A stretch of 64,000 nucleotides of DNA from Cytophagales bacterium (GCA_013297755.1 JAAFIH010000026.1:281-64280); one strand, 5' to 3'; shown: positions 1 through 58,451, numbered from the stretch's first letter. The notes: generated by a model from the letters alone, not told the origin. Numbers and translations are program-made.

Positions 1-17
1 TTGGATTAGTAAAATAG
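1..17 (+). CDS. 3' terminus (cut by window edge) of a third copy of the small coiled-coil/C-terminal-TM protein family seen at 4828-5202 and 5323-5649
   Basis: Bases 3-17 read G-L-V-K-stop, matching the last codons of both downstream paralogs (ttggattagtaaaata). The same hairpin-repeat array follows. Confidence 0.5.
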
Positions 18-520
18 TTTTTTCAGCCAGAAGTTCCACTTTTCAAAAAAGTGGAACTTCTTTGTTTACAAGATACCATCGCTCCAGGCGATGGTATCTT
101 TATCATAAAATTCATGCGTTAGCAAAAGCCCCCTTCGGGGGTTTGGGGGCTTTCCCAGAAGTTCCACTTTTCAAAAAAGTGGAACTTCATTGTTTACAAA
201 GATACCATCAATCCAAGCGATGGTATCTTTATCATAAAAATCATGCGTTAGCAAAAGCCAACTTCGGGGGTTTGGGGGCTTTCTAGCTCTGGGGTTTTGG
301 GGCTTCTTTGTTTACAAAGATACCATCGCTCCAAGCGATGGTATCTTAATCATAAAATTCATGCGTTAGCAAAAGCCCCCTTCGGGGGTTTGGGGGCATC
401 TATCAAAAGCCCCCTTCGGGGTTCTGTGCATCGAACAGAAGTACTTTCAGGGGGCATTCTAGCTTGGGGTTTTGGGGGCTTTCCCAGAAGTTCCACTTTT
501 CAAAAAAGTGGAACTTCTAA
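18..520 (+). repeat. Modular hairpin-repeat array A (about 128-bp composite units)
   Basis: H1 is a perfect 15-bp-stem hairpin, agaagttccactttt-caa-aaaagtggaacttct, at 29-61, 157-189 and 486-518. H2 hairpin agataccatcgct-ccaa-agcgatggtatct is at 71-99, 200-228 and 318-346. cccc-ttcg-gggg hairpins occur (e.g. 130-141), and a ttctgt...acagaa hairpin lies near 422-440. Confidence 0.9.
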
Positions 521-725
521 AAAAAAAAAACAAAAAAAATATTATCTTTTTCAACTCTTTTTGTTTTTGTAAATTTTATCCCTAATATTACATCTAAATT
601 TAAACTAAAAAAACATAAATCTTCAACTTATGCAAAATTCAACATTCTCATCCATCCCAAAAAGCCCCCAAACCCTCGAAGGCAAAATTGCGACATCGCA
701 GCAATTTTTAAAACATCGAATTACC

Positions 726-887
726 CATGCGTCAGCCTCAAAAACAAAAAAAAGTCCTATCTCAAGTCCCTCTCCTTTTGGAGAGGGATTTAGGGTGGGT
801 TTTTTTCATGCGTCAGCCCCAAAAACTAAAAAAAGTCCTATCTCAAGTCCCTCTCCTTTTGGAGAGGGATTTAGGGTGAGGTCTTTT
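726..887 (+). repeat. Two tandem 81-bp repeats, each with a tccctctcc-tttt-ggagaggga hairpin, in the leader of the adhesin gene
   Basis: catgcgtcagc...agtcctatctcaagtccctctccttttggagagggatttagggtg occurs at 726-806 and again at 807-887. The first hairpin is at 767-788. Confidence 0.85.
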
Positions 888-929
888 TCTACACCATCAA
901 ACCTCTTTTCAACTTCTAAAAACAAAAAC

Positions 930-3900
930 ATGAAACATTCATTCTCCATTCTCCATTCTGCAATCTCAATTATTTTCCTCCTCCTTACCCACCTCACCCA
1001 TGCCCAACGCACCTTTGCCCCTCAAGTTACCTACGCTACAGGTACTAATCCTCGCAGCGTAGCCATAGGCGACCTTACAGGCGATGGCAGAGCAGATTTA
1101 GCAGTTGTGAATCGGTCTAGCAATACCGTAAGTGTATATACCAACACTGGCAGCGGCAGCTTTGCCCCACAGGTAACCTACGCCACAGGTTCTTTTCCAC
1201 GCAGCGTAGCGATAGGCGACCTAAATGGCGATGGCAGGGCCGATTTGGCAGTAGCGAATAGTAGTAGCAATACCGTAAGTGTATTGACCAACACAGGCAG
1301 CGGCAGCTTTGCCCCCCAAGTAACCTACGCCACAGGTTCTAATCCGTACAGCGTAGCGATAGGCGACCTTACAGGCGATGGCAGAGCAGATTTGGCAGTA
1401 GCTAATTATGGTAGCAATACTGTAAGTGTTTTGACCAACACAGGCAGCGGCAGCTTTGCCCCCCAAGTAACCTACGCCACAGGTTCTAGTCCATACAGCG
1501 TTTCGATAGGAAATCTAAATAACGATAGTTATTTGGATTTAGCAGTAGCTAATTTTAGTAGCAATACAGTAAGTATATTAACAGGTACTGGCACAGGTAG
1601 CTTTGGCACAAGGGTGGATTATGCTACTGGTATTAATCCTCGCAGCGTAACATTTGGCGATTTAAATAACGATAGTCATCTAGATTTATGCATATCATCA
1701 GGGACAAGTAGTCAAATTAATTTAGTATCAGTTTTAACAAATACAGGTGGTGGAATATTCAATAGTAAAATTGATTACATTACAGATTATGACCAAGAAA
1801 ATGTAGCAATTGGTGATATAAATAACGATAACAAACTTGATTTGATTGTAGCAGCAACTCCATTTAATAATGCAGTTCAATCTACTGCTGTAATTGGTCT
1901 AATTAATGATGGTTTTGGTCAATTCACAATAAATAAATTTCCTTACTTAAATACTGGGCCAAGAAGTGTATTTATTGGCGACTTGAACAGCGACAATAAA
2001 GCTGATCTAATTACAGCGAATCAAGGTAGCAATACTATAAGTGTATTGTTGGCACAAGATTTGCAGTTTATTGGTGGGTTTTCAGTTGCAAACCAAGTAT
2101 ATGGCAATACATTTGCTTTTAATGCAACAGCTACTAGTGGCTTGCCGGTGAGCTACAGCAGTTCAAATCCTAGTATTATAAATATAGTAGGCTCTGCTGC
2201 TACTGCTACAGGTGTGGGAGTAGTTACAGTTACCGCTTTTCAAAGTGGCAATGGTAGCTTTTTGGGTGTAACTACTACTGGCGTGCTTACTGTAACCAAA
2301 GCCAACCTTGCAGTACAAGGCAATAATGCCACCAAAGTGTATGGCTCTCCAAATCCAGCTTTTACCAGTTCTGTTTCTGGTTTGGTGTTGGGCAATACTG
2401 TAAATATAACTTACAGCACCACCGCTACACCTAGTAGCAATGTGGGCAATTATCCTATCAATATAAGTTTAACAGGGGCAGCCTTGGCAAATTATAATCT
2501 CTCCATTGTTAATTCTCAACTCTCCATTACTCCTGCCAATCAAAGTGTCACTTTATCACCCATTTCCAATATCACTCTTATAGGTTTACCAGTAGTTATT
2601 ACAGTATCAGGTAGTGCAAGTTCTGGTTTGCCAGTGTCGCTTTCTTCAAGTCCTGCTTTGGCTATCAATGGTTTAGTGCTTACTGTTACCAGTGCAGGTA
2701 TCTATACCATTACGGGTACACAAGCTGGAAATGGCAATTACTATGCTGCTAATCCAGTAAGTGTAATTTTTCAAGCTATCGTACTTCCTACAATTAGTGG
2801 CAACAACTATGGCATAGGCAATACCAATCCTGTAGAGGCTTGTACCGCCAATAAATTTACATATTCTATTATTGCATCCAATACTGTGCCAAGTGGTATT
2901 ATTGGCTACGAAATTCGTATCCCTTATAATCCTATACTCGTTCAGCCTACTGGTATAAACACATTTGGTGAGGTACTTACTAATACAGGGGCTCCTTTGC
3001 GTATTTTTACAACCGTTACAACTATTTCTGGTCAGGTTTTCTATGTTGTCAATCTGTTTGCAAATTTCACATTTACAGGTGTTATAGCATCAGGTGTTGG
3101 TACTATCCTAAATGTTGAGTTTGCACTTCAGTCTGCTATAAGTCCACAAGTATTGAGTTTGACTGGAGTTATTTCAGAATCGACCATTTTAACAAGCACA
3201 AACCTAACTAGTCTAACACCAAATGTGCTTAATATTATTCCAAATGACATAAATAAAGTGAGAGGTACTTTATTGGGATATAGCCTAAACAATAAGCCAA
3301 TACAAAGTTTGGGAGCATCAAAAACAGTGTTGTTTGGTGCATTAGGTTCTGTTTTGGGTAGTTCGTTACAAACATTGTCTGGTAATACATTTTCTGTTAG
3401 TCTTCCTGTGGGTTCTGATGGAATTGGTATAGTTCGTAATTTTGATGATGGGGCAATTGTAAATCCTGTCATCAACAGCAACGATGCATTAATAACGCAA
3501 CGCATAGTAAACGGTATGCCACCATTTAATGTAACATCTCCAACAATATTGCAATTAATAGCCGCTGATGTTAATTCTGATGGCAGAGTACAGTTATCAG
3601 ATTGGATATTGATTCAACAGCGTGCTATAAATACGATTGGTACATTTCCAAACTCACCTGATTGGAAATTTATAGAAACCACTCGTTTAATAACATTTAC
3701 AGGACAAAATAATTTTAATTTTCCTTTAGCAAATGCTATTGTTTCAGTATCGCAAGTAAATAATGCCAATGGATGTAGTGATTTTGGAGATAGGGCAGTA
3801 ACAGGTGTTTTGGTAGGGGATGTTGATGGAAATTGGAATACAGCTACTCATAGTAATACCTTTAGAACAGAAGGCGAAACAGAAGTGGTATATAAATTTA

Positions 3901-4499
3901 CAGAATCTGTTGTCGATGATTCTGCAAACGAAGTAAAAGTGCCAGTTTATGTTGCCTATTCAGAAGCACTAAGTGCAATTGATGTTGATTTAGACTATGA
4001 CGAAACTAATTTTGAGATAAAAAATGTAGAATTACCTCAATCACAAAGTCCTAGCAATTGTTCGATGCAGTACAATGATTTTCAAAATAAACGACTATTG
4101 ATTTCAAGTCTTTCATTTGAATCTTTTGATATATCAAATCCTGTACTTTACATTACATTCAAAGGAAAAACAACATTTACAGGAGCTGACTTCAAAGAAG
4201 TAAATTCATATCTAGCAGGTAATAAGGTTAGTTCTCGTTTAGAACTTGCTTCACAAACGAATGCTATTAAAATAGATTCAAATCCATCGAAGCCACTTTC
4301 TGTTTTGCCAAATCCAAACAAGGGAAGTTTTGTTATTTTCACTTCCTCAAACAAAAGCCTAATAGAAATTTATAATTCAATAGGTATGCTTGTTAAAAGT
4401 ATCATATCGCCAAATGATAAAGAAAATGTATCTGAATTGCCTTCAGGAATGTATTTAATAAAAGTTGGCAAAGAGACCATAAAAGTTATTGTAGAGTAG
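930..4499 (+). CDS. Giant secreted T9SS cargo/adhesin: FG-GAP/VCBS repeats, MBG-like, cohesin-like and dockerin-like segments, Por C-terminal sorting domain
   Basis: The ORF spans 630-4499, but its first 100 codons only translate the 81-bp repeats. ATG 930 gives a signal peptide, MKHSFSILHSAISIIFLLLTHLTHAQ. Also seen: repeated VAIGDLxGDGRADLAVxN FG-GAP motifs, KVYGSPNPAFT (MBG-like), DVNSDGRVQLSDW (dockerin-like), and a C-terminus LSVLPNPNKGSF...GMYLIKV...IKVIVE typical of T9SS CTDs. Confidence 0.85.
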   Translation: MKHSFSILHSAISIIFLLLTHLTHAQRTFAPQVTYATGTNPRSVAIGDLTGDGRADLAVVNRSSNTVSVYTNTGSGSFAPQVTYATGSFPRSVAIGDLNGDGRADLAVANSSSNTVSVLTNTGSGSFAPQVTYATGSNPYSVAIGDLTGDGRADLAVANYGSNTVSVLTNTGSGSFAPQVTYATGSSPYSVSIGNLNNDSYLDLAVANFSSNTVSILTGTGTGSFGTRVDYATGINPRSVTFGDLNNDSHLDLCISSGTSSQINLVSVLTNTGGGIFNSKIDYITDYDQENVAIGDINNDNKLDLIVAATPFNNAVQSTAVIGLINDGFGQFTINKFPYLNTGPRSVFIGDLNSDNKADLITANQGSNTISVLLAQDLQFIGGFSVANQVYGNTFAFNATATSGLPVSYSSSNPSIINIVGSAATATGVGVVTVTAFQSGNGSFLGVTTTGVLTVTKANLAVQGNNATKVYGSPNPAFTSSVSGLVLGNTVNITYSTTATPSSNVGNYPINISLTGAALANYNLSIVNSQLSITPANQSVTLSPISNITLIGLPVVITVSGSASSGLPVSLSSSPALAINGLVLTVTSAGIYTITGTQAGNGNYYAANPVSVIFQAIVLPTISGNNYGIGNTNPVEACTANKFTYSIIASNTVPSGIIGYEIRIPYNPILVQPTGINTFGEVLTNTGAPLRIFTTVTTISGQVFYVVNLFANFTFTGVIASGVGTILNVEFALQSAISPQVLSLTGVISESTILTSTNLTSLTPNVLNIIPNDINKVRGTLLGYSLNNKPIQSLGASKTVLFGALGSVLGSSLQTLSGNTFSVSLPVGSDGIGIVRNFDDGAIVNPVINSNDALITQRIVNGMPPFNVTSPTILQLIAADVNSDGRVQLSDWILIQQRAINTIGTFPNSPDWKFIETTRLITFTGQNNFNFPLANAIVSVSQVNNANGCSDFGDRAVTGVLVGDVDGNWNTATHSNTFRTEGETEVVYKFTESVVDDSANEVKVPVYVAYSEALSAIDVDLDYDETNFEIKNVELPQSQSPSNCSMQYNDFQNKRLLISSLSFESFDISNPVLYITFKGKTTFTGADFKEVNSYLAGNKVSSRLELASQTNAIKIDSNPSKPLSVLPNPNKGSFVIFTSSNKSLIEIYNSIGMLVKSIISPNDKENVSELPSGMYLIKVGKETIKVIVE
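1014..1601 (+). repeat. Intragenic tandem 147-bp (49-aa) FG-GAP repeat units, the first three nearly identical at DNA level
   Basis: FAPQVTYATGxxPRSVAIGDLxGDGRADLAVxNxSSNTVSVxTNTGSGS repeats with period 147 nt from 1014. The spurious antisense ORF 1221-1466 mirrors the periodicity. Confidence 0.85.
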
Positions 4500-4525
4500 G
4501 AACACGCCTTTTGGCGAGTTCTTTT

Positions 4526-4561
4526 AGCGATGGCATCCCTTTTTTTAGGGATGCCATCGCT
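4526..4561 (+). terminator. 15-bp-stem hairpin just after the adhesin stop codon
   Basis: agcgatggcatccct-tttttt-agggatgccatcgct. The arm sequence is related to the H2 module. Confidence 0.6.
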
Positions 4562-4565
4562 GTAT

Positions 4566-4740
4566 ACAGAAGTTCCACTATTCAAAAAAGTGGAACTTCT
4601 TTGTTTACAAAGATACCATCGCTCCAAGTGATGGTATCTTTATCATAAAATTCATGCGTTAGCAAAAGCCCCCTTCTGGGTTCTGTGCATCGAACAGAAG
4701 TACTTTCAGGGGGCATTCTAGCTCGGGGGTTTGGGGGCTT
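4566..4740 (+). repeat. Modular hairpin-repeat array B (one composite unit plus ttctgt/acagaa module)
   Basis: H1 variant at 4568-4600 and H2 at 4611-4639. These are followed by catgcgttagcaaaagccccc..., gttctgtgcatcgaacagaagtactttcagggggc and gggggtttgggggc. Confidence 0.9.
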
Positions 4741-4827
4741 ACTTGGTAAGTTTATATTCTCAAAAAATAAATTTTAATTCTTTTTTATTTCTATTTCTTT
4801 TTTTAATTTTGAAGCTAAAATACGGAA

Positions 4828-5202
4828 ATGGCACAAAGCATCACTTTAGAAACTTATATTTCTCTTGAAAAAGAATTTGGCAAAGCAATTGCAGAGAAAG
4901 TAAGCAAATTGATAGATTTTTCTTTTGCCCAAGCCGACAAAAAAGTTGAAGATATAGCTACTCAAAAAAAGCTCCAAATCAAAGATGAATTGAGCAAAGA
5001 ATTGGCCTCAAAGGGGGATTTGGCTGTTTTGGAATCAAAATTATTGTTAGAAATAGAATTAGTTAATAGCAAAATTGAAAAAGTAGAATCTAAACTTGAC
5101 AAAAAAATGACAATTTATTTTCTGGTTTTACTTTCTGTGATGATACTCCTCAACAAAGATTCGCTTACTTTTATAGCTCAATTGATTGGATTAGTAAAAT
5201 AG
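4828..5202 (+). CDS. Small coiled-coil protein with C-terminal TM helix (DUF1640-like architecture), paralog 1
   Basis: 124-aa ORF with heptad-like KDELSKELASKGDLAVLESKL...KIEKVESKLDKK followed by the hydrophobic IYFLVLLSVMILL. The 3' ~60 nt are nearly identical to 5590-5649. Confidence 0.65.
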   Translation: MAQSITLETYISLEKEFGKAIAEKVSKLIDFSFAQADKKVEDIATQKKLQIKDELSKELASKGDLAVLESKLLLEIELVNSKIEKVESKLDKKMTIYFLVLLSVMILLNKDSLTFIAQLIGLVK

Positions 5203-5322
5203 TTTTTACAAATTAGATTTTCAAAGTTTCAAAAACTTGGAAAGTCTAAATACAAAAAAAAATCGTATCTAAAATGCAAATTTAGATTAATATCATTTAT
5301 TTTGTCATAATAATATACAAAT

Positions 5323-5649
5323 ATGGCACAAACGAATCAATTACCATATTTCATTAGAGAAGAAATTTTTAAAGATTTGCCAAAAGAAAAGGCATCCCAT
5401 TTATCCGATTTAATTGAAAAATCTATTGACACCGTATTTTCTAGTGCAAAAGATATTGCTATTCAAAAAAAATTAGAAATTAAAGATGAATTAGGCAAAG
5501 AACTAGCTTCAAAATCTGATTTGGCATTGGTAAAATCAGAACTAAAATCTGAAATAAGACTTTATTTTGTGATTCTTCTTTCTGTGATGATTATCCTCAA
5601 CAAAGATTCGATTTCTTTTATAGCTCAATTGATTGGATTAGTAAAATAA
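5323..5649 (+). CDS. Small coiled-coil protein with C-terminal TM helix, paralog 2
   Basis: 108-aa ORF sharing IAxQKKLxIKDELxKELASKxDLA...LLSVMIxLNKDSxxFIAQLIGLVK with 4828-5202. Confidence 0.65.
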   Translation: MAQTNQLPYFIREEIFKDLPKEKASHLSDLIEKSIDTVFSSAKDIAIQKKLEIKDELGKELASKSDLALVKSELKSEIRLYFVILLSVMIILNKDSISFIAQLIGLVK

Positions 5650-5654
5650 TTTTA

Positions 5655-6105
5655 TAGTCAGAAGTTCCACTTTTCAAAAAAGTGGAACTTCTTTGTTTGC
5701 AAAGATACCATCGCTCCAAGCGATGGTATCTTTATCATAAAATTCATGCGTTAGCAAAAGCCCCCTTCGGGGGTTTGGGGGCTTTCTAGCTCTGGGGTTT
5801 TGGGGCTTCTTTGTTTACAAAGATACCATCGCTCCAAGCGATGGTATCTTAATCATAAAATTCATGCGTTAGCAAAAGCCCCCTTCGGGGGTTTGGGGGC
5901 TTTCTAGCTCTGGGGTTTGGGGGCTTTCCCAGAAGTTCCACTTTTCAAAAAAGTGGAACTTCTTTGTTTGCAAAGATACCATCGCTCCAAGCGATGGTGT
6001 ATCTTTATCATAAAATTCATGCGTTAGCAAAAGCCCCCTTCGGGGTTCTGTGCATCGAACAGAAGTACTTTCAGGGGGCTTTCTAGCTCGGGGGTTTGGG
6101 GGCAT
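5655..6105 (+). repeat. Modular hairpin-repeat array C
   Basis: H1 at 5660-5692 and 5931-5963. H2 at 5703-5731, 5821-5849 and 5974-6004 (the last with a 2-nt insertion). Several cccc-ttcg-gggg and gggtttggggg modules are present. Orientation matches arrays A and B. Confidence 0.9.
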
Positions 6106-6239
6106 AATAAAAAATAATCCAAGCGATCTTATCTTTAGTTTTCAACCTCGCTTTCTAATCTTCAATTATTTATCAATTTTTATTTACAATTCATTTTTTT
6201 ATATTTGCAAATATTAATTTTCAAATCATTTTATAAATC

Positions 6240-6473
6240 ATGGAATTACCTAAGTTTTTGGTCTGCGACAATACTGATTATCCAGATGATATTTTTATTT
6301 TACATATAGATTTTCCACGTTTTATCATCAATCTAAAAGACGATGAGGTAGAATTACTTGAATCTACCGAGGAGCTATCACAAGAAGAATTGGATAACAA
6401 AATGACCGAATTGATAGATATGGCCAATGATTTTTATGATCGTGAATCAGAAAGATACGAGGCTGAAGATTAG
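6240..6473 (+). CDS. Small acidic hypothetical protein
   Basis: 77-aa ORF, D/E-rich, immediately upstream of coaD on the same strand. No recognisable motif. Confidence 0.45.
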   Translation: MELPKFLVCDNTDYPDDIFILHIDFPRFIINLKDDEVELLESTEELSQEELDNKMTELIDMANDFYDRESERYEAED

Positions 6474-6497
6474 TTTTTTGAATTATTTTTCTTTGAT

Positions 6498-6953
6498 ATG
6501 AAAAAAATAGCCCTATTTCCTGGTAGTTTCGACCCCTTTACCAATGGTCATTATGATATTGTAAATCGAGGATTGCTTATTTTTGACCAAATTATAATAG
6601 CCATTGGCCACAATACTACCAAAAAACGCTATTTTGAGGTTGCTAAAATAGCATCTGAATTAAAAAAAGTTTTCGCTCACAAACCTCAAATTTCGGTAAC
6701 TACTTACGAAGAACTGACTACTGATGTGGCCAAAAAACATAATGCTACTTTTTTATTAAGAGGATTGAGAAATAGCACTGATTTTGAGTACGAAAAAAGC
6801 ATTGATCAAATCAACAAAGATTTATATCCAGAACTAGAAACTGTTTTTTTGATGACAAAACCCGAAAATATGGCCATCAGCTCAACTATAGTACGTGAAT
6901 TACATAAATTTGGTGCAGATATTACTAAATATGTACCAATCTCGTTTACTTAA
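6498..6953 (+). CDS. coaD: Phosphopantetheine adenylyltransferase
   Basis: N-terminal FPGSFDPFTNGHYDIV (GSFDPxTxGH nucleotidyltransferase motif), 151 aa, and ISSTIVRE near the C-terminus. Confidence 0.9.
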   Translation: MKKIALFPGSFDPFTNGHYDIVNRGLLIFDQIIIAIGHNTTKKRYFEVAKIASELKKVFAHKPQISVTTYEELTTDVAKKHNATFLLRGLRNSTDFEYEKSIDQINKDLYPELETVFLMTKPENMAISSTIVRELHKFGADITKYVPISFT

Positions 6954-7045
6954 AAATCATATAAACTTTCTCTTTTGGAGAAAGACTAAGATAGAGGCAA
7001 TAAAAAATGCTGAAGTAAACGACATTGAAATATGTGCCTATAAAT

Positions 7046-9821: not shown

Positions 9822-9895
9822 GGTTCGGTAGTTCAGTTGGTTAGAATACATGCCTGTCACGCATGGGGTCGCGGGTTCGAGTCCCGTCCGAACCG
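9822..9895 (+). tRNA. tRNA-Asp (anticodon GTC)
   Basis: Cloverleaf read by eye: acceptor ggttcgg/ccgaacc, anticodon stem catgc/gcatg with loop ctGTCac, T-arm gcggg-ttcgagt-cccgt, discriminator g. No encoded CCA. Confidence 0.9.
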
Positions 9896-9990: not shown

Positions 9991-10377
9991 ATCAGTTTAC
10001 TTTCCTTATAATCTACATTTTTATTTTTTAGCCATTCCCTGATATGATAGTTGCTTGTTTGTTTTCAACTTTCATTTCTATTCCTGTAATACTTGGAATA
10101 ACATAAGGCAAAAGTTTTACAACTATCTCAAGCCTTTCTTTTGGTTCTAGTTTTTTTAGTTGGTTTGGCATGGTATCACTTTTATAAATTAATGTACCAA
10201 TGTCGTTAGCTTAAGAATCAGATTGTCATTTTCCTTTGAAGAAAGACTTAGATTCAGGCATTAAAAATACTTATATAAAGGACATTGATTAGTAATCTAT
10301 AATTCCATTACCAAAACTAACTTTACCTTTTTTTTGAACACTGATGTCAATGTATTAAATTGTACTTTATTTATAAA

Positions 10378-13553: not shown

Positions 13554-13888
13554 AGCCTGATAATAATGCCGTTAAATTAATCTAACGGCCATATTTATAA
13601 GTAATTATTTATGTCAAACTTTTAATAGTTTTTTGAGGTTTTAGTAATAACCTTAAACAAACTGATAATAAACTATTTACATTCAATAATTTAAAATTAA
13701 AAAATAATATATTAAAGTTTAAACAAAATAAGTAAAAGTTACATTAAATAATTAATGTCTTTTACTCAAGAATCAGATTATCTTTCGCCTTTTGATAAAG
13801 ACCAAGAGAAAAGTAAAAAAATACTTAAGTAAACTACTTTTATTTTAAAATATAAATTCTTACTAATTTAATTTATTTTTTAACTATA

Positions 13889-17464: not shown

Positions 17465-17539
17465 GTTTTAAATAATTATTACAAATTACGTATAAATATT
17501 TTTATTATTGACTAAATTTAATTTAGATTTAAAAAATAT

Positions 17540-17616
17540 AATAATCAATAATCAATAATCAATAATCAATAATCAATAATCAATAATCAATAATCAATAA
17601 TCAATAATCAATAATC
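17540..17616 (+). repeat. Heptanucleotide microsatellite (AATAATC) x11, ending exactly at the ATG of the next gene
   Basis: Eleven perfect units counted from 17540. The ATG is at 17617. Confidence 0.95.
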
Positions 17617-17964
17617 ATGCATCTAGATCAACTTCGAGAATATTGTTTAGCAAAACCTCACACCACTGAATCATTGCCTTTTGATAACAAGACTTTGGTT
17701 TTCAAAGTCCTGTCCAAAATATTTGTTATTACAGATATAGAGTCTGAGATTTTAACTTTTGCTGCCAAATGTGATCCAGAAAAAGCCATAGAATTACGCC
17801 AACAATATGATTGGGTGCAACCTGGCTACCATCTTAGCAAAAAACATTGGAATACTTTAACCTATAATGGCACCAACTCCAAAATACTAAAAGATCTCAT
17901 CGACCATTCTTACCAACAAGTTTTGGCATCCATGACAAAAAAAGAAAAACTATTGATGCAATAA
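17617..17964 (+). CDS. MmcQ/YjbR-family DNA-binding protein
   Basis: LREYCLAKPHTTESLPFDNKTLVFKV...HWNTL pattern typical of YjbR; 115 aa. Confidence 0.75.
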   Translation: MHLDQLREYCLAKPHTTESLPFDNKTLVFKVLSKIFVITDIESEILTFAAKCDPEKAIELRQQYDWVQPGYHLSKKHWNTLTYNGTNSKILKDLIDHSYQQVLASMTKKEKLLMQ

Positions 17965-18045: not shown

Positions 18046-18050
18046 GTGTA

Positions 18051-18085
18051 ATCAATAATCAATAATCAATAATCAATAATCAATT
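18051..18085 (+). repeat. Heptanucleotide microsatellite (AATCAAT = rotated AATAATC) x5, overlapping the porin stop codon
   Basis: Five perfect units from 18051, with the same unit and strand as 17540-17616. Confidence 0.9.
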
Positions 18086-19301
18086 AATATTTGTAAATGA
18101 AAGCCATACCAATAGTAGTTTGGTGATCAATTCCTTTACCAGTATTATCTTTATACTGACCTCTACCTGGAGCAGCATCTACTCTAAATTCTGGTTTCAA
18201 GATTACGTGTCCATCTGACAATGTAATGGGTAATGTAACAGTAAGGGCATTATTAATAGTACCAATTAAATTATTTCTAGCTCCACTTTTGTTGTTAAAA
18301 TGCTCATATCTTACACCTATTCCTAAGAAATCTGTAATTTTATAATTTGCATAAAAGGCAGCTCCACCCCAGTCGTGTTTCTTTTTGAAAATTGTGCCAT
18401 TTCCGCCTGTTGGGTTTAACACATCTTGTTCGTAATTAATCATACCATAAGCAGCATTTAAGCCTATATATAATTTGTCGGTAGCTTGTAAACCAATGTT
18501 AAGATCAAATAAGTTTCTAGTATAAGGTACAACAGTAACTGGTGAAATAGCATTTAAATTTGTACTATTAAATCCAGACAAACCCTGTCCATCATTAGAT
18601 GGTTTACCTGTAGATGATGATGCAATTCTTGCTTGATCATCTCCATATCCACCAATCCAGTTCAAATACATACCAAATTTAGAAGAAGGATTGATAGCGA
18701 TTACACCTATCAAAGATTTTTGAGTTTTGTAATCTACTAAGTTATCCCAGTTGTTTACAACACCACCAGTTATTCTTAACCAATCAGTAGCTATAAACTG
18801 AATTTTTGCTCCAATATGGTAGAAAGGACCATTATTAAACAAATTTGAAAGCGAATAATTGTAGTTATTTGGAGCATCTACACCTTCATATCCAATATGT
18901 GTAGCAAATTGACCTACTGTAAAGTTCAATTTTTTAGACAAATTGTATTTAAAGTAAGCTTGCTTGATTGCAACTGAATTACCACCAATTCCAAAGTCTA
19001 AATTTCCAAAGTTTGCAAGTCTGGCATAAGGACCAAAAACTAAATCCATTACCAATTCAGAATTTCTGTTAGTATAAGCAAATCTAGTTTGTACCAAACC
19101 TAAAGCAAATTGATTGTTTTTAACATCAAAAGGTCTGTTTTGTAATTCAGTAACAGCACTTTCATTTTGAAATTTGTAATTGTAATAAGAATCAATATAA
19201 CCGTTGAGGGTAAATTTGCCTGCGGTTTTGGTTGAGTCTTGTGCAAAAGCTAAGCCAGAAGCTAATAATCCAGCAGCTAATGAGTAAATTGTCTTTTTCA
19301 T
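18084..19301 (-). CDS. Outer-membrane beta-barrel porin
   Basis: Signal peptide MKKTIYSLAAGLLASGLAFAQ, alternating amphipathic strands, and an aromatic C-terminus ...GMAFIYKY. Confidence 0.7.
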   Translation of the reverse strand: MKKTIYSLAAGLLASGLAFAQDSTKTAGKFTLNGYIDSYYNYKFQNESAVTELQNRPFDVKNNQFALGLVQTRFAYTNRNSELVMDLVFGPYARLANFGNLDFGIGGNSVAIKQAYFKYNLSKKLNFTVGQFATHIGYEGVDAPNNYNYSLSNLFNNGPFYHIGAKIQFIATDWLRITGGVVNNWDNLVDYKTQKSLIGVIAINPSSKFGMYLNWIGGYGDDQARIASSSTGKPSNDGQGLSGFNSTNLNAISPVTVVPYTRNLFDLNIGLQATDKLYIGLNAAYGMINYEQDVLNPTGGNGTIFKKKHDWGGAAFYANYKITDFLGIGVRYEHFNNKSGARNNLIGTINNALTVTLPITLSDGHVILKPEFRVDAAPGRGQYKDNTGKGIDHQTTIGMAFIYKY

Positions 19302-19676
19302 AAGATAGGTTTTAAGGGTTGAAAATTAATTTAAGTTAATAAAATCTTATTGCAAACATAATTATTAAAAGTTACAATACAATTATTTTTAAAGAAATTG
19401 TAGATTTTTTTTTAAAAATAATTAAACATAAGTATGTAAATAGCTGATTATCAGAGGTTTATCTAATTATATTTTTATTAAACTTTTTTATATAATTAAC
19501 GTAACTTAGGCAGAAATCATTGTTTATTTATATAATTACCTTTAAAATAATCCTTTCTAAATAAAGATTGTATCAAAAAAATACAATTTGAGTTGAATTT
19601 TAAACCTAATTTAAAGAATAATACGATTTTTGTAAAAAAGCCACAAATGCACGAATTTTAATCAATACACAAAAAG

Positions 19677-19721
19677 CCCAACTCCCTTATCCCATATGGA
19701 GGGGGTTGGGGATTTTTTTTT
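19677..19721 (+). terminator. Orphan GC-rich hairpin plus T9 (terminator-like; possibly a dispersed repeat-family member or an sRNA 3' end)
   Basis: cccaactccc (19677-19686) pairs with gggggttggg (19701-19710), followed by ga+T9. No plus-strand gene lies upstream. It is flanked by two gccacaaatgcac(g/a)aa copies, at about 19640 and about 19778. Confidence 0.45.
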
Positions 19722-19879
19722 AATTTTAATGCTTACGCATTTATTAAGCTACTAATGTACGAGTGTATTTAGATAAAGCCACAAATGCACAAACTTAATT
19801 TTTATAGTTTTAATGTAAATATGTATATCTTACATTAAAATAGCACATGTAAAGTAGCAATTTATTGAAGCTAATTAAC

Positions 19880-22828: not shown

Positions 22829-22894
22829 TCCACAAAATTAATATCTTTTATTTTACTTGTTTATAAAGTATTTATTTTTTTTAAAATTATTGAA

Positions 22895-23040
22895 TTAATG
22901 GTTAGTGGTTAGTGGTTAATTGTTAATGGTTAATTGTTAATTGTTAATTGTTAATTGTTAATTGTTAATTGTTAATTGTTAATGGTTAATTGTTAATGGT
23001 TAATTGTTAAAGGTTATAACTTATAACTTATAACTTATTG
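22895..23040 (+). repeat. Degenerate heptanucleotide array of about 21 units (TTAATGG/TTAGTGG/TTAATTG, ending in TTATAAC x3)
   Basis: Period-7 register is maintained from 22895 to about 23040, between the divergent rnz and response-regulator genes. Confidence 0.9.
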
Positions 23041-23346
23041 ATAATTTTACAATCAGTGGTTTTTAGCTTCAATTTGATTATAATCCTTACAAAGAATATT
23101 TTTATTTGTACATGTTTAAATAAAATGTTTGTTCTTTTTTGAAAATTAAATTACATCTTTATTATTAAAAAAATTAATTCTTTTTATGTTTTTTTATTGA
23201 TATTCAATCAGTTATATAAAAATAAATTTGTATATTTTTAATTTATTACATCTATTTAAAAAATTGATATGTTTTTTTTTGGGAAGTCAATAAACTTAAT
23301 TTAATTTTGAGCGTAAGAAATCAACAATATTAAATATATCCCCAAT

Positions 23347-36068: not shown

Positions 36069-36413
36069 ATGAAAACTGTAAAAACAATCGCCTTGATGTT
36101 ATTGACATCAATAATTATGTGGGCAAACGCTCCACAGCATGTAGAAACCATCACATTTAAAGTATGGGGAAATTGTGAAATGTGTAAAGCTCGAATTGAA
36201 AATGCACTTAAAATAAAGGGTGTAAAAAAGGGAGAATGGAACGTAGATACCAAAATAGCTTCAGTTACATTTGATATCCACACCATTAAATCAGATGCTA
36301 TTCACAAAGCAATTGCAGCTGTAGGTTACGATACAGAACAGGTAAGAGCCCAAGACAAAATGTATAAAAAACTACCTGGTTGTTGCCAATACGATAGAGC
36401 TCTTAAAAAATAA
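36069..36413 (+). CDS. Secreted HMA domain protein with C-terminal GCCQY motif, copy 2
   Basis: FKVWGNCEMCKARIENAL and LPGCCQYDRALKK; paralog of 32254-32592. Confidence 0.75.
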   Translation: MKTVKTIALMLLTSIIMWANAPQHVETITFKVWGNCEMCKARIENALKIKGVKKGEWNVDTKIASVTFDIHTIKSDAIHKAIAAVGYDTEQVRAQDKMYKKLPGCCQYDRALKK

Positions 36414-36514: not shown

Positions 36515-36590
36515 TCAAAAGTCCCTCCCTTTTGGATTCTGTGGCATTGTAACAGAAATTGGGTTGGGGTGGGGCTAAAAAAAAAGGTAT
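36515..36590 (+). repeat. Isolated copy of GC-rich hairpin-repeat modules related to those at 422-440 and 767-788
   Basis: agtccctcccttttgga, ttctgtggcattgtaacagaa (ttctgt/acagaa stem) and gggttggggtggggc. Confidence 0.6.
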
Positions 36591-58226: not shown

Positions 58227-58406
58227 TTTTTTAAATAATTTTGTAAGATTTTATTTTAATTTTATCAATTTGTTTAAAATATATAAACTCTAGATTTCAA
58301 TTTCAATTATTTTTTTGAATGTAAAGATTAATCCTTATAGAATATATAGTACAAGTCCTAAAAAAGGGGGCTTAGATAACGAAATCTATAGTTTTAGAAA
58401 AATTAA

Positions 58407-58445
58407 AACTTATAACTTATAACTTATAACTAATAACTCATAATG
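58407..58445 (+). repeat. Heptanucleotide microsatellite (AACTTAT x3 plus 2-3 degenerate units)
   Basis: aacttat aacttat aacttat aactaat aactcat. This is the same unit (a rotation of TTATAAC) and strand as the tail of the 22895-23040 array. Confidence 0.85.
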
Positions 58446-58451
58446 ATTCTC

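Follow-up and report, generated by a model that had tools for sequence, protein, structure and literature searches.

What kind of genetic element are the three arrays of hairpin repeats that lie between the genes in the first 6.1 kb of this DNA, and do their hairpins act in RNA or in DNA? The stretch analysed, referred to below as the window, comprises 64,000 nucleotides from a Cytophagales bacterium (GCA_013297755.1, JAAFIH010000026.1:281-64280). It is chromosomal DNA of a Bacteroidota bacterium, has ~31% G+C, and carries genes for SprA, a type IX secretion system (T9SS) cargo protein, TonB-dependent receptors and ribosomal proteins. Judged from their sequence, the arrays are a real, previously uncatalogued and lineage-restricted family of extragenic repeats made of terminator-like hairpins, comparable to the mosaics called BIMEs (bacterial interspersed mosaic elements), BOX and NIMEs (Neisseria intergenic mosaic elements). 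As to their role, we give about an even chance to the reading that they are transcribed as structured 3' untranslated regions (UTRs), that the hairpins act in the sense RNA for termination or 3'-end protection, and that recombination amplifies, trims and homogenises the arrays. Mosaics of extragenic repeats have been described extensively for Proteobacteria, Firmicutes and Neisseria but hardly for free-living Bacteroidota; the present family is a clean case of ordered hairpin modules.

Architecture of the Arrays

The three intergenic arrays consist of head-to-tail units of 118-129 nt each (Table 1). Repeat finding returned a 119-nt unit in seven copies, and Tandem Repeats Finder gave an array period of 118. 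By BLAST of module consensus sequences combined with unit alignment, five modules were resolved in one cyclic order: A (the hairpin H1), B (a linker plus the hairpin H2), C (a linker), D or its longer form D', and E, with A and E being optional. A preliminary description of the window had placed the modules at these positions, and all of the copies were found there. It had also spoken of modules shuffled from unit to unit, which overstates the variation. Because the order is fixed and the units differ only in the presence of A or E and in the D/D' indel, the arrays are better read as tandem units with optional modules, as in BOX or BIME. Likewise, the replacement of H1 noted in some units is only part of the picture, since E stands in for H1 in two units, whereas two further units have both.

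Module A, AGAAGTTCCACTTTTCAAAAAAGTGGAACTTCT, is 33 bp long and intergenic, and its perfect copies form a 15-bp stem with a CAA loop. It is present six times, four copies being exact and two having one mismatch (chance expectation 0); the number agrees with the preliminary count, although the perfect 15-bp stem is found in only four of the six. Module B is composed of TTGTTTACAA and H2, AGATACCATCGCTCCAAGCGATGGTATCT, a 29-bp intergenic element found seven times with 0-2 mismatches. Its number and 13-bp stem are as first described, whereas its loop is CCA and not CCAA. The linker module between H2 and D or D' is CATGCGTTAGCAAAA; the linker CATGCGTTAGCAAAAGCC occurs seven times, always on the + strand (chance ~0), and GGGGTTTGGGGGC has 11 copies inside the arrays, again all on the + strand (chance ~0). 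Module D, (AAA)GCCCCC-TTCGGGGGTTT-GGGGGC(TTT), is a CCCCC-UUCG-GGGGG hairpin from which D' differs by a 24-nt indel within one stem. A covariance model built on D' fits all five D copies end to end, and there is almost no covariation in the D/D' alignment because the copies are too similar. Module E is a weak hairpin that forms only through G-U pairs. The junctions between alternative modules lie at short shared strings, namely GGGGGCTTTC before A or E and CTTCTTTG after A or E.

The density of pairing at this locus is far from that of shuffled DNA. Perfect stems of at least 9 bp number 35 in the window, 16 of them in the first 6.1 kb, and nine stems in the arrays reach at least 12 bp, against 1-7 stems of at least 9 bp in shuffles of the whole window.

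A separate observation concerns the boundary of D and E. On the + strand, motifs of the G-quadruplex type (four G-runs of at least three) occur only three times in the whole window, and all three are situated at D-E junctions, with GGGGGTTTGGGGGC…GGGGTTTGGGGG as the candidate sequence. They include GGGGTTTTGGGG, which equals the telomeric repeat of Oxytricha.

Position Beside Genes and Pairing in the Sense RNA

Every gene across 1-6953 lies on the + strand, and each array starts either 10-12 nt past the stop codon of such a co-directional gene or directly after the hairpin of the upstream gene. H1 begins 11 nt past the stop codon of paralog 0 and 10 nt past that of paralog 2, which belong to a group of small genes of the PF27276 type, and a diverged hairpin of the H1 type, H1b, follows paralog 1. 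Situated in these 3' intergenic spaces, the arrays would be read together with the upstream gene and give its transcript a long structured 3' UTR. In this sense RNA, H1, H2 and D/D' would then fold into stable hairpins that halt RNA polymerase, block 3'-to-5' exonucleases, or both, as their anatomy suggests: D has an A-tract, a 9-bp stem and UUUC, and a terminator scan of the + strand flagged H1 followed by UUGUUUAC at four copies as well as one H2 copy. Terminator-like sites amount to 15 in 6.6 kb, compared with 5.2 in shuffles.

The hairpin that immediately precedes array 2 (4526-4561) holds the arm core of H2, AGCGATGG…CCATCGCT, inside-out. It may be an older relative of H2.

The pairing of H1 has been maintained, because H1 and H1b are related by compensatory changes and a third variant rests on another stem altogether. 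H1 and H1b differ at five pairs, of which three are compensatory Watson-Crick changes, one is a G-U pair and one is a mismatch. The third variant, H1c, is read across the end of contig L006 and the start of contig L007 (11-nt overlap); its centre is still TTT(T)CAAAAA, but the perfect 12-bp stem around it is unrelated. Where near-identical copies differ on one side of a stem, the change gave a G-U pair in four cases and an A-C opposition in one. The C(UUCG)G tetraloop is formed on the + strand only, and sense folding is better than antisense folding for all imperfect modules but one (Table 1), an advantage that is due to the G-U pairs.

Two solitary elements elsewhere in the window had been listed as related modules. 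The one at 36515-36580 is a true diverged D', and the D/D' covariance model found no further copy in the window beyond it. The one at 19677-19740 has nothing but the architecture in common with the family and reads along the minus strand; because it is inverted along with its neighbouring genes, orientation tracks transcription rather than a fixed DNA strand. The strict strand bias claimed at first holds inside the arrays and is otherwise overstated, since a degenerate D module at 664-682 is inverted, with perfect inverted copies on contigs L002 and L007, and the orientation rule is therefore not absolute.

The decamer ATGCGTNAGC occurs at 10 sites in the window, where 0.08 are expected, and all of them are co-oriented with the local genes. 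It is common to the main family, to a second repeat family described below and to the 19.7-kb element, and always stands upstream of an A-rich spacer and a GC hairpin. It can form a tiny GC-closed hairpin with a GNNA loop (GUAA at 19.7 kb). ATGCGT-led motifs are present in the unrelated repeats of contig L003 as well.

The reading of the arrays as 3' UTR hairpins, already put forward in the preliminary description, is thus supported at the level of sequence by the position after stop codons, the compensatory changes, the G-U bias, the sense folding and the co-inversion of the 19.7-kb element. Several points weigh against it. Transcription through the arrays is assumed; we infer it, together with the effect on termination or RNA stability and the recombination mechanism. 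The U-tracts behind the hairpins are short or interrupted, and the terminal H1 leads into an A-run (A12) and not into a U-run. Ordinary gene ends in the window have one A-tract/stem/U-tract hairpin each. Because ordinary terminators are single hairpins, up to 13 in a row exceeds by far what termination needs. H1, H2 and D are perfect palindromes and therefore carry no strand information; the 4:1 ratio of G-U to A-C changes is without statistical significance; and the strand bias comes from one co-directional locus and two solitary elements, to which the inverted D module runs counter. Folding of the whole array is equal on the two strands (-213.8 versus -217.1 kcal/mol), a comparison that is uninformative because the repeated palindromes pair with one another. 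Finally, the unpaired linker C is conserved like the stems (64/64 nt identical between L002 and the window), and a role of RNA hairpins alone therefore does not account for it.

Comparison with Known Repeat Families

The family had been reported as unrecognised, and the Rfam search likewise gave no match: at the gathering threshold only a tRNA at 9822 passes in the whole window, and at an E-value threshold in 1-6300 the arrays draw only sub-threshold matches, of 20-28 bits against gathering thresholds of 55-100. An exact pattern, TCATGCGTTAGCAAAAGCC, had no true copy in GTDB representative genomes and one chance match in Granulicella. Exact scans of JGI metagenomes with two patterns and of IMG/VR with three patterns gave 0 matches; because an exact match was required, diverged copies would escape these three scans. 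A blastn search of plasmids and phages with array 1 gave no match, and a six-frame translation of array 1 searched against 5.8 billion proteins revealed no mis-called open reading frame (ORF) among the candidates listed, at most 8000.

By function and architecture, the closest systems are BIMEs, BOX, SPRITE and NIMEs, and membership in each is excluded by defining sequence features. Repetitive extragenic palindromes (REPs) and the BIMEs of Enterobacteria and Pseudomonas are 20-40 bp extragenic palindromes that conserved linkers join into composite mosaics, mostly behind genes; they have G-U pairs that suggest an RNA role, and have been proposed to function in termination and mRNA 3'-end protection (PMC3733652). 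In contrast, the arrays described here have neither a GTAG/CGTC tag nor a visible REP-associated tyrosine transposase (RAYT), and are clustered at one locus in 64 kb; their perfect stems of 13-15 bp exceed those of REPs in length and close 3-nt loops. Whereas REPs are typically inverted dimers (PMC3733652), the asymmetric modules of this family (C, D', E and the loops) all follow one another head to tail in + orientation. BOX elements of Streptococcus pneumoniae and S. suis (boxA-boxBn-boxC) are similar in that ordered, mostly self-folding modules, any of which may be absent or repeated, form intergenic elements that are often at 3' ends (PMC3049150). They differ in sequence and phylum, their terminal modules resemble the inverted repeat of an insertion sequence (IS), and they are dispersed in ~100 copies, while the present arrays repeat whole units in tandem and have no terminal inverted repeats. 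The pneumococcal SPRITE and other terminator-like repeats share a long perfect duplex followed by a U-rich stretch, are larger than Rho-independent terminators and are enriched downstream of genes (PMC3049150). SPRITE, however, is a single dispersed element, and here three different hairpins are chained and tandemly repeated.

NIME arrays are also long and non-coding, lie beside surface-protein genes, alternate GC-rich palindromes with AT-richer segments, are lineage-specific, and differ in length and content between related loci (PMC1797815). They consist of the 20-bp dRS3 flanking more than 100 RS families, whereas the present family has one unit type only and no dRS3 (ATTCCCN8GGGAAT, 0 matches with up to 1 mismatch allowed). 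The BrickBuilt MITE (miniature inverted-repeat transposable element) of Porphyromonas gingivalis is a parallel from within the Bacteroidota, being a species-restricted intergenic element with a tandem repeat array (PMC4596501). It is built from a 23-nt repeat without hairpin modules and from leader and tail subunits with inverted ends, in 19 dispersed copies, none of which features is seen here.

Two further systems invite comparison by layout. Chromosomal integrons have attC sites (for example the VCRs of Vibrio), which are co-oriented hairpin repeats of ~120 bp that stand behind small hypothetical genes and resemble one another closely within a genome. The arrays are likewise co-oriented hairpin repeats of ~120 bp after small genes. 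They differ in lacking R''/R' core sites (RYYYAAC and GTTRRRY are absent from all arrays on either strand) and, among the window ORFs, an integrase, in having units back to back without an ORF, and in that the genes here appear to have their own promoters. A CRISPR array differs in having unique spacers, whereas everything between the hairpins here is itself repeated.

Copies on Other Contigs

The window CoaD is 57-67% identical to named Spirosomataceae/Cytophagales proteins, and its nearest relative among the 5.8 billion proteins searched is 73% identical. Because the best relative is so distant, the source lineage is poorly sampled. The window's own CoaD contig, L010, was found in Logan sample SRR9948931 and nine other samples, and the organism is present in the samples SRR9948923-33; the contig is 100% identical to 6064-6993 and starts within array 3. 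Three short contigs from the same sample series, L002, L006 and L007, carry copies of the family beside other PF27276 paralogs. The preliminary description had considered that the modules might be confined to one locus: within the 64-kb window full modules do occur only at 1-6.1 kb, with none in the other 58 kb, but these contigs hold further copies.

L002 has the order C-D'-D'-A', with the junction (A/T)TCTATCAAAAGCCCC that is specific to array 1 and a 64/64-nt identical stretch. In L006 there is a relic that has lost, between CAAAAA and CAAAGA, the H1 3' arm, the linker and the beginning of H2. The gene on L007 is 100% identical to that on L002 and has no array upstream. L002 (1-250) and L007 (880-1045), which come from different samples, share an identical PF27276 gene and downstream region and diverge upstream at TTTTAAACCC; beyond this point there is a repeat array in L002 and unrelated sequence in L007. 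The difference is either a strain polymorphism or reflects two gene copies in one genome. Because the window organism is in those samples and no other close CoaD is there, the three contigs may represent other loci or strains of the same organism. Their interpretation as different species with cross-species module conservation (92-100%) was dropped, as L010 is found in the same series and the next CoaD relative comes from an unrelated data set.

In the nearest sampled relative (contig L011, CoaD 73%), the 160 nt ahead of the orthologue of the 77-aa gene contain no array. In a Cytophagales metagenome-assembled genome (MAG; L003, GCA_046152935.1), quite different modular hairpin repeats surround the PF27276 homologue. 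This gene is preceded by 7 tandem copies of a ~60-nt repeat and bracketed by ~100-nt hairpin-module repeats (TTGTTGGAG…CTCCAACAA; GTGTAGGGT…CCCTACAC), which recur past the next small gene (DUF5618). Their sequences differ from those of the window family, and their habit is alike.

Identity between arrays is 95.5-97.1% and between neighbouring units 93.8%. Thus 5659-5900 of array 3 and 156-397 of array 1 are 97.1% identical, and array 2 matches the final unit of array 3 at 95.5%. The coding sequences of the two complete paralogs share 79-84% identity, and unique DNA flanking homologous loci 71-78%. Other repeat families occupy 3' intergenic regions both in this genome and in the related MAG L003. 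In evolutionary terms, young homogenised arrays occur beside decayed relics, and the genomes concerned put up with numerous repeat families in their 3' intergenic DNA. H1 probably derives from the hairpin that the PF27276 genes themselves had after the stop codon, and D probably from an ordinary A-tract/GC-stem/U-tract terminator; if so, the family would indicate that repeats can arise from the hairpin with which a gene ends. Growth and shrinkage of the arrays and the loss of single modules may proceed by unequal recombination or slippage at the short junctions (GGGGGCTTTC, CTTCTTTG, CAAA[A/G]A), and the observed near-identity among arrays may be kept by gene conversion or recent duplication. 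In the source metagenomes, strains could be typed by array length and module content. In practice, arrays of this kind interrupt assemblies of short reads and can be annotated wrongly as ORFs.

Alternative Explanations

It is possible, though unlikely, that the arrays are a non-autonomous MITE-like or IS200/IS605-type (REP/PATE-like) element, mobilised in trans as hairpin-bearing DNA by a transposase gene located elsewhere in the genome, with ATGCGTNAGC as a recognition or cleavage tag. The array copies are 92-100% alike, far above the surrounding genes and unique DNA, which lends indirect support to the mobile family suggested in the preliminary description, and these young homogeneous copies exist alongside relics (L006/L007, 664-682, 6116-6137, 36515). 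An array upstream of only one of two identical genes in L002 and L007 points the same way. So do the conservation of the unstructured linker, the recurrence of ATGCGTNAGC in the second repeat family and of ATGCGT-led motifs in L003, and the fact that the short-read contigs L002 and L010 break inside arrays, as multi-copy DNA would. The marks of transposition, however, are missing from the window. GTAG, CTAC, CGTC and GACG are absent from all three arrays on both strands, and the units are head to tail and not the inverted dimers typical of REPs (PMC3733652). None of the three arrays has a target-site duplication, as their flanks have no direct repeat in common, and no terminal inverted repeats delimit them: arrays 2 and 3 run from H1 to E, and the H1 at both ends of array 1 is a trivial match because H1 is palindromic. 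ORFs of 100 aa or more in the window include no transposase, RAYT or integrase, no full module lies in its remaining 58 kb, and the searches of IMG/VR, plasmids and phages yielded no copies.

We consider it rather improbable that the arrays are a functionless minisatellite, in which a terminator region by a duplicated gene was amplified by slippage and unequal crossing-over, persists because it is tolerated in 3' intergenic DNA, and has hairpins that were inherited and not selected. Such an origin would explain the tandem head-to-tail layout with a period of 118-129, the junctions at short shared sequences, and the high identity between arrays, which fits recent amplification or gene conversion. 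Decayed copies do unpair without compensation (H1' of L002, the H2-like copy of L006, and H2 at 200-228), and there is no array at the orthologous gene of L011. What the minisatellite does not predict is the pairing: the three compensatory changes between H1 and H1b, together with the stem variant H1c, indicate longer-term selection, and the sense-strand G-U bias of the imperfect modules is not expected in neutral DNA.

A role of the arrays as DNA-level sites is improbable. In the simpler version, the near-perfect palindromes of 33 bp and 29 bp would serve a recombinase or another dimeric DNA-binding protein for binding or crossover, and the arrays would be NIME- or attC-like hot spots of recombination at which the adjacent small genes and the surface-protein gene are exchanged or varied. 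H1 and H2 are indeed laid out like tyrosine-recombinase cores, with inverted arms of 12-13 bp and a short asymmetric centre. The outer octamers of H1, GAAGTTCC/GGAACTTC, are also those of yeast FRT, which is probably a coincidence, as no recombinase was found in the window. Small paralogous genes and the gene of a T9SS surface protein lie next to the arrays, the ~100-nt repeats of L003 bracket each small gene (PF27276, DUF5618), and the PF27276 neighbourhoods differ between contigs (a DUF4160 pair, a helix-turn-helix gene, an IS). NIME arrays likewise alternate GC-rich and AT-rich segments by surface-antigen genes (PMC1797815). Against such sites stand the absence of attC core sites and dRS3, the absence of a recombinase or integrase in the window, the lack of any inverted segment or alternative arrangement inside the arrays, and the fact that no half-site recurs in all three palindromes. 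E, D' and H1b, moreover, favour the sense strand through G-U pairs, which points to RNA instead. In a broader version, which we regard as more improbable still, the arrays would belong to an undescribed cassette-exchange system of Cytophagales. H1 and H2 would be FRT- or attC-like cores, or single-strand hairpins, for an unlinked recombinase or HUH enzyme, with ATGCGTNAGC as an additional tag; PF27276 paralogs, toxin-antitoxin-like pairs, DUF5618 and surface-protein genes would be captured, duplicated or swapped, and related genomes would use other repeats. Should the arrays turn out to serve recombination and not to act as RNA hairpins, a new mechanism for gene cassettes would be indicated.

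The promoters of Bacteroidota have a -7 box with the consensus TAnnTTTG. That the arrays are tandem small-RNA genes, each unit comprising a promoter, hairpins and the terminator D and yielding many copies of one small RNA or protein-sponge RNA, is the least credible explanation: D is terminator-like at the unit end and a possible -7 box (TAAGTTTG) lies upstream of the minus-strand 19.7-kb element, but neither a TTTG...TAnnTTTG promoter on the sense strand nor, in a sigma-70-type scan, any other promoter was found inside the units, no Rfam family matched, and units without H1 or E would yield different RNAs.

Genomic Setting and Other Repeats

Table 1. Location of the arrays, their modules and further features, with folding energies where calculated; coordinates refer to the window unless a contig is named.
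Feature	Position	Strand	Sense / antisense folding (kcal/mol)	Remarks
Array 1	18-520	+		ABCD ABCDE BCD D'E A, then A-run
Array 2	4566-4740	+		single unit ABCD'E; immediately after hairpin 4526-4561, downstream of T9SS cargo gene
Array 3	5655-6137	+		ABCDE BCDE ABCD'E (5655-6105), then half-H2 relic 6116-6137
H1	29-61	+		perfect 15-bp stem, CAA loop
H1	157-189	+		terminal pair broken
H1	486-518	+		perfect; last element of array 1
H1	4568-4600	+		one A-A mismatch
H1	5660-5692	+		perfect; 10 nt past stop codon of ORF 5323-5649
H1	5931-5963	+		perfect
H1b, diverged H1-type hairpin	5215-5247	+	-13.1 / -9.2	12 nt past stop of ORF 4828-5202 (paralog 1)
H2	71-99	+		single U-G pair beside loop
H2	200-228	+		two adjacent stem mismatches (A-C, A-G)
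H2	318-346	+		perfect 13-bp stem, CCA loop
H2	4611-4639	+		one G-U pair
H2	5703-5731	+		perfect
H2	5821-5849	+		perfect
H2	5974-6004	+		2-nt insertion, 3' arm
Hairpin after T9SS cargo gene	4526-4561	+		15-bp stem, T7 loop, without U-tract; AGCGATGG/CCATCGCT core in common with H2
Module C, linker TTATCATAAAATTCATGCGTTAGCAAAA	100-127; 229-256; 347-374; 4640-4667; 5732-5759; 5850-5877; 6005-6032	+
Module D, GCCCCCTTCGGGGGTTTGGGGGC	128-150; 257-279 (CC>AA variant); 375-397; 5760-5782; 5878-5900	+		A-tract, GC stem, short U-tract
Module D'	409-455; 4668-4714; 6033-6079	+	-24.2 / -21.8	outer D stem around TTCTGT…ACAGAA hairpin
Module E, TCTAGCTCTGGGGTTT(T)GGGG(G)C	282-303; 458-479; 4717-4738; 5785-5806; 5903-5924; 6082-6103	+	-6.3 / -0.2	G-rich tail
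D+E			-24.4 / -19.7
Degenerate D module, inverted	664-682	-		perfect inverted copies: L002 694-716, L007 1486-1508
Solitary diverged D'-type element	36515-36580	+	-23.7 / -13.0	~100 nt downstream of + gene 36069-36413; covariance model 47 bits, E 9e-11
Same-architecture element	19677-19740	-	-23.5 / -25.1	ATGCGTAAGC, A-rich spacer, GC hairpin, T-run; downstream of minus-strand rpsB-rpsU
Second repeat family	722-806		-34.7 / -27.9
ATGCGTNAGC sites	114-123, 243-252, 361-370, 727-736, 808-817, 4654-4663, 5746-5755, 5864-5873, 6019-6028	+
ATGCGTNAGC site	19731-19740	-
G-quadruplex-type motifs	266-302; 5769-5805; 5887-5923	+		one unrelated motif on minus strand, within gene
PF27276-type small gene, 3' end (…GLVK stop), paralog 0	1-17	+		truncated at window edge; 96% identical to 5186-5210 (end of ORF 4828-5202)
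PF27276-type small protein, paralog 1	4828-5202	+		coiled coil and C-terminal transmembrane
PF27276-type small protein, paralog 2	5323-5649	+
FG-GAP / MBG / Por_Secre_tail (T9SS cargo) protein gene	930-4499	+		between arrays 1 and 2
CAAYTTATGMAAAATTCWAYATYC/CAAACAATGAAAAATT motif	window 623-650; L002 664-690; L007 186-215, 866-895; L005 1133-1160; L009 470-500
Heptanucleotide microsatellites	17526-17631; 18047-18096; 22881-23045; 58398-58448
L003 repeat regions	300-690; 690-790; 1245-1335; 1950-2100

Members of the PF27276 family have a coiled coil plus a C-terminal membrane helix. For the PF27276 proteins beside the arrays there was no match in the Pfam copy used, NCBIfam or PDB, PHROGs gave noise only, and no viral relatives were found. 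The conserved motif CAAYTTATGMAAAATTCWAYATYC (or CAAACAATGAAAAATT…) stands shortly downstream of all PF27276 paralogs examined; possibilities are the start of a leader ORF or a regulatory site.

The T9SS cargo gene likely starts at 930, where the predicted signal peptide provides the basis. An ORF can also be read from an ATG at 630 (630-4499), in which 100 codons are open across the second repeat family, in frame with this signal peptide, and the homologous region of L002 (677-1026) has the same open frame. This may be an effect of composition, because the opposite strand is also open (a gene is called there in L002). The 147-nt tandem repeats at 1009-1673 encode FG-GAP repeats of the cargo protein; there is nothing unusual about them, and they have no relation to the hairpin arrays. 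The GC skew has its minimum near 22 kb, but an origin of replication there was rejected, as DnaA boxes are present only at chance level.

The second repeat family consists of two tandem 81-nt copies (726-806 and 807-887, 94% identical) and occurs also in L002 at ~760-910. Its sequence, CATGCGTCAGCC…A7-GTCCTATCTCAAGTCCCTCTCC-TTTT-GGAGAGGGATTTAGGGTG(A)GG-T7, folds into a long A-tract/stem/U-tract hairpin with 5 G-U pairs. In a 400-nt search its resemblance to Whalefall-1 of Rfam (RF01762) was sub-threshold (26.1 bits versus a gathering threshold of 37, E 9e-5). Its copies precede the T9SS cargo gene and do not follow a gene of this kind.

The element at 19677-19740 is flanked by a direct repeat of ~20 nt, GCCACAAATGCAC(G/A)AA…TAAT, at 19640-19662 and 19778-19800. 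The box TAAGTTTG, which resembles the Bacteroidota -7 element, lies on the minus strand ahead of the upstream copy of the GCCACAAATGCAC repeat. The region may have arisen by local duplication, or it may be a small transcription unit of its own.

A 68-nt repeat family with 72% identity and a terminal hairpin of the type CTTTCTC-TTTTGG-AGAAAG is found at 6924-6991, 10185-10252 and 13740-13807; 3/3 copies lie in convergent intergenic regions in the same orientation. Intergenic microsatellites with heptanucleotide units (AATAATC, TTAATTG/TTAATGG/TTAGTGG and TAACTTA) recall the intergenic TAACTGA heptamer repeats of Beggiatoaceae, cyanobacteria and a few Bacteroidetes (PMC4679880). One of these microsatellites reaches the ATG of the ORF at 17617-17964.

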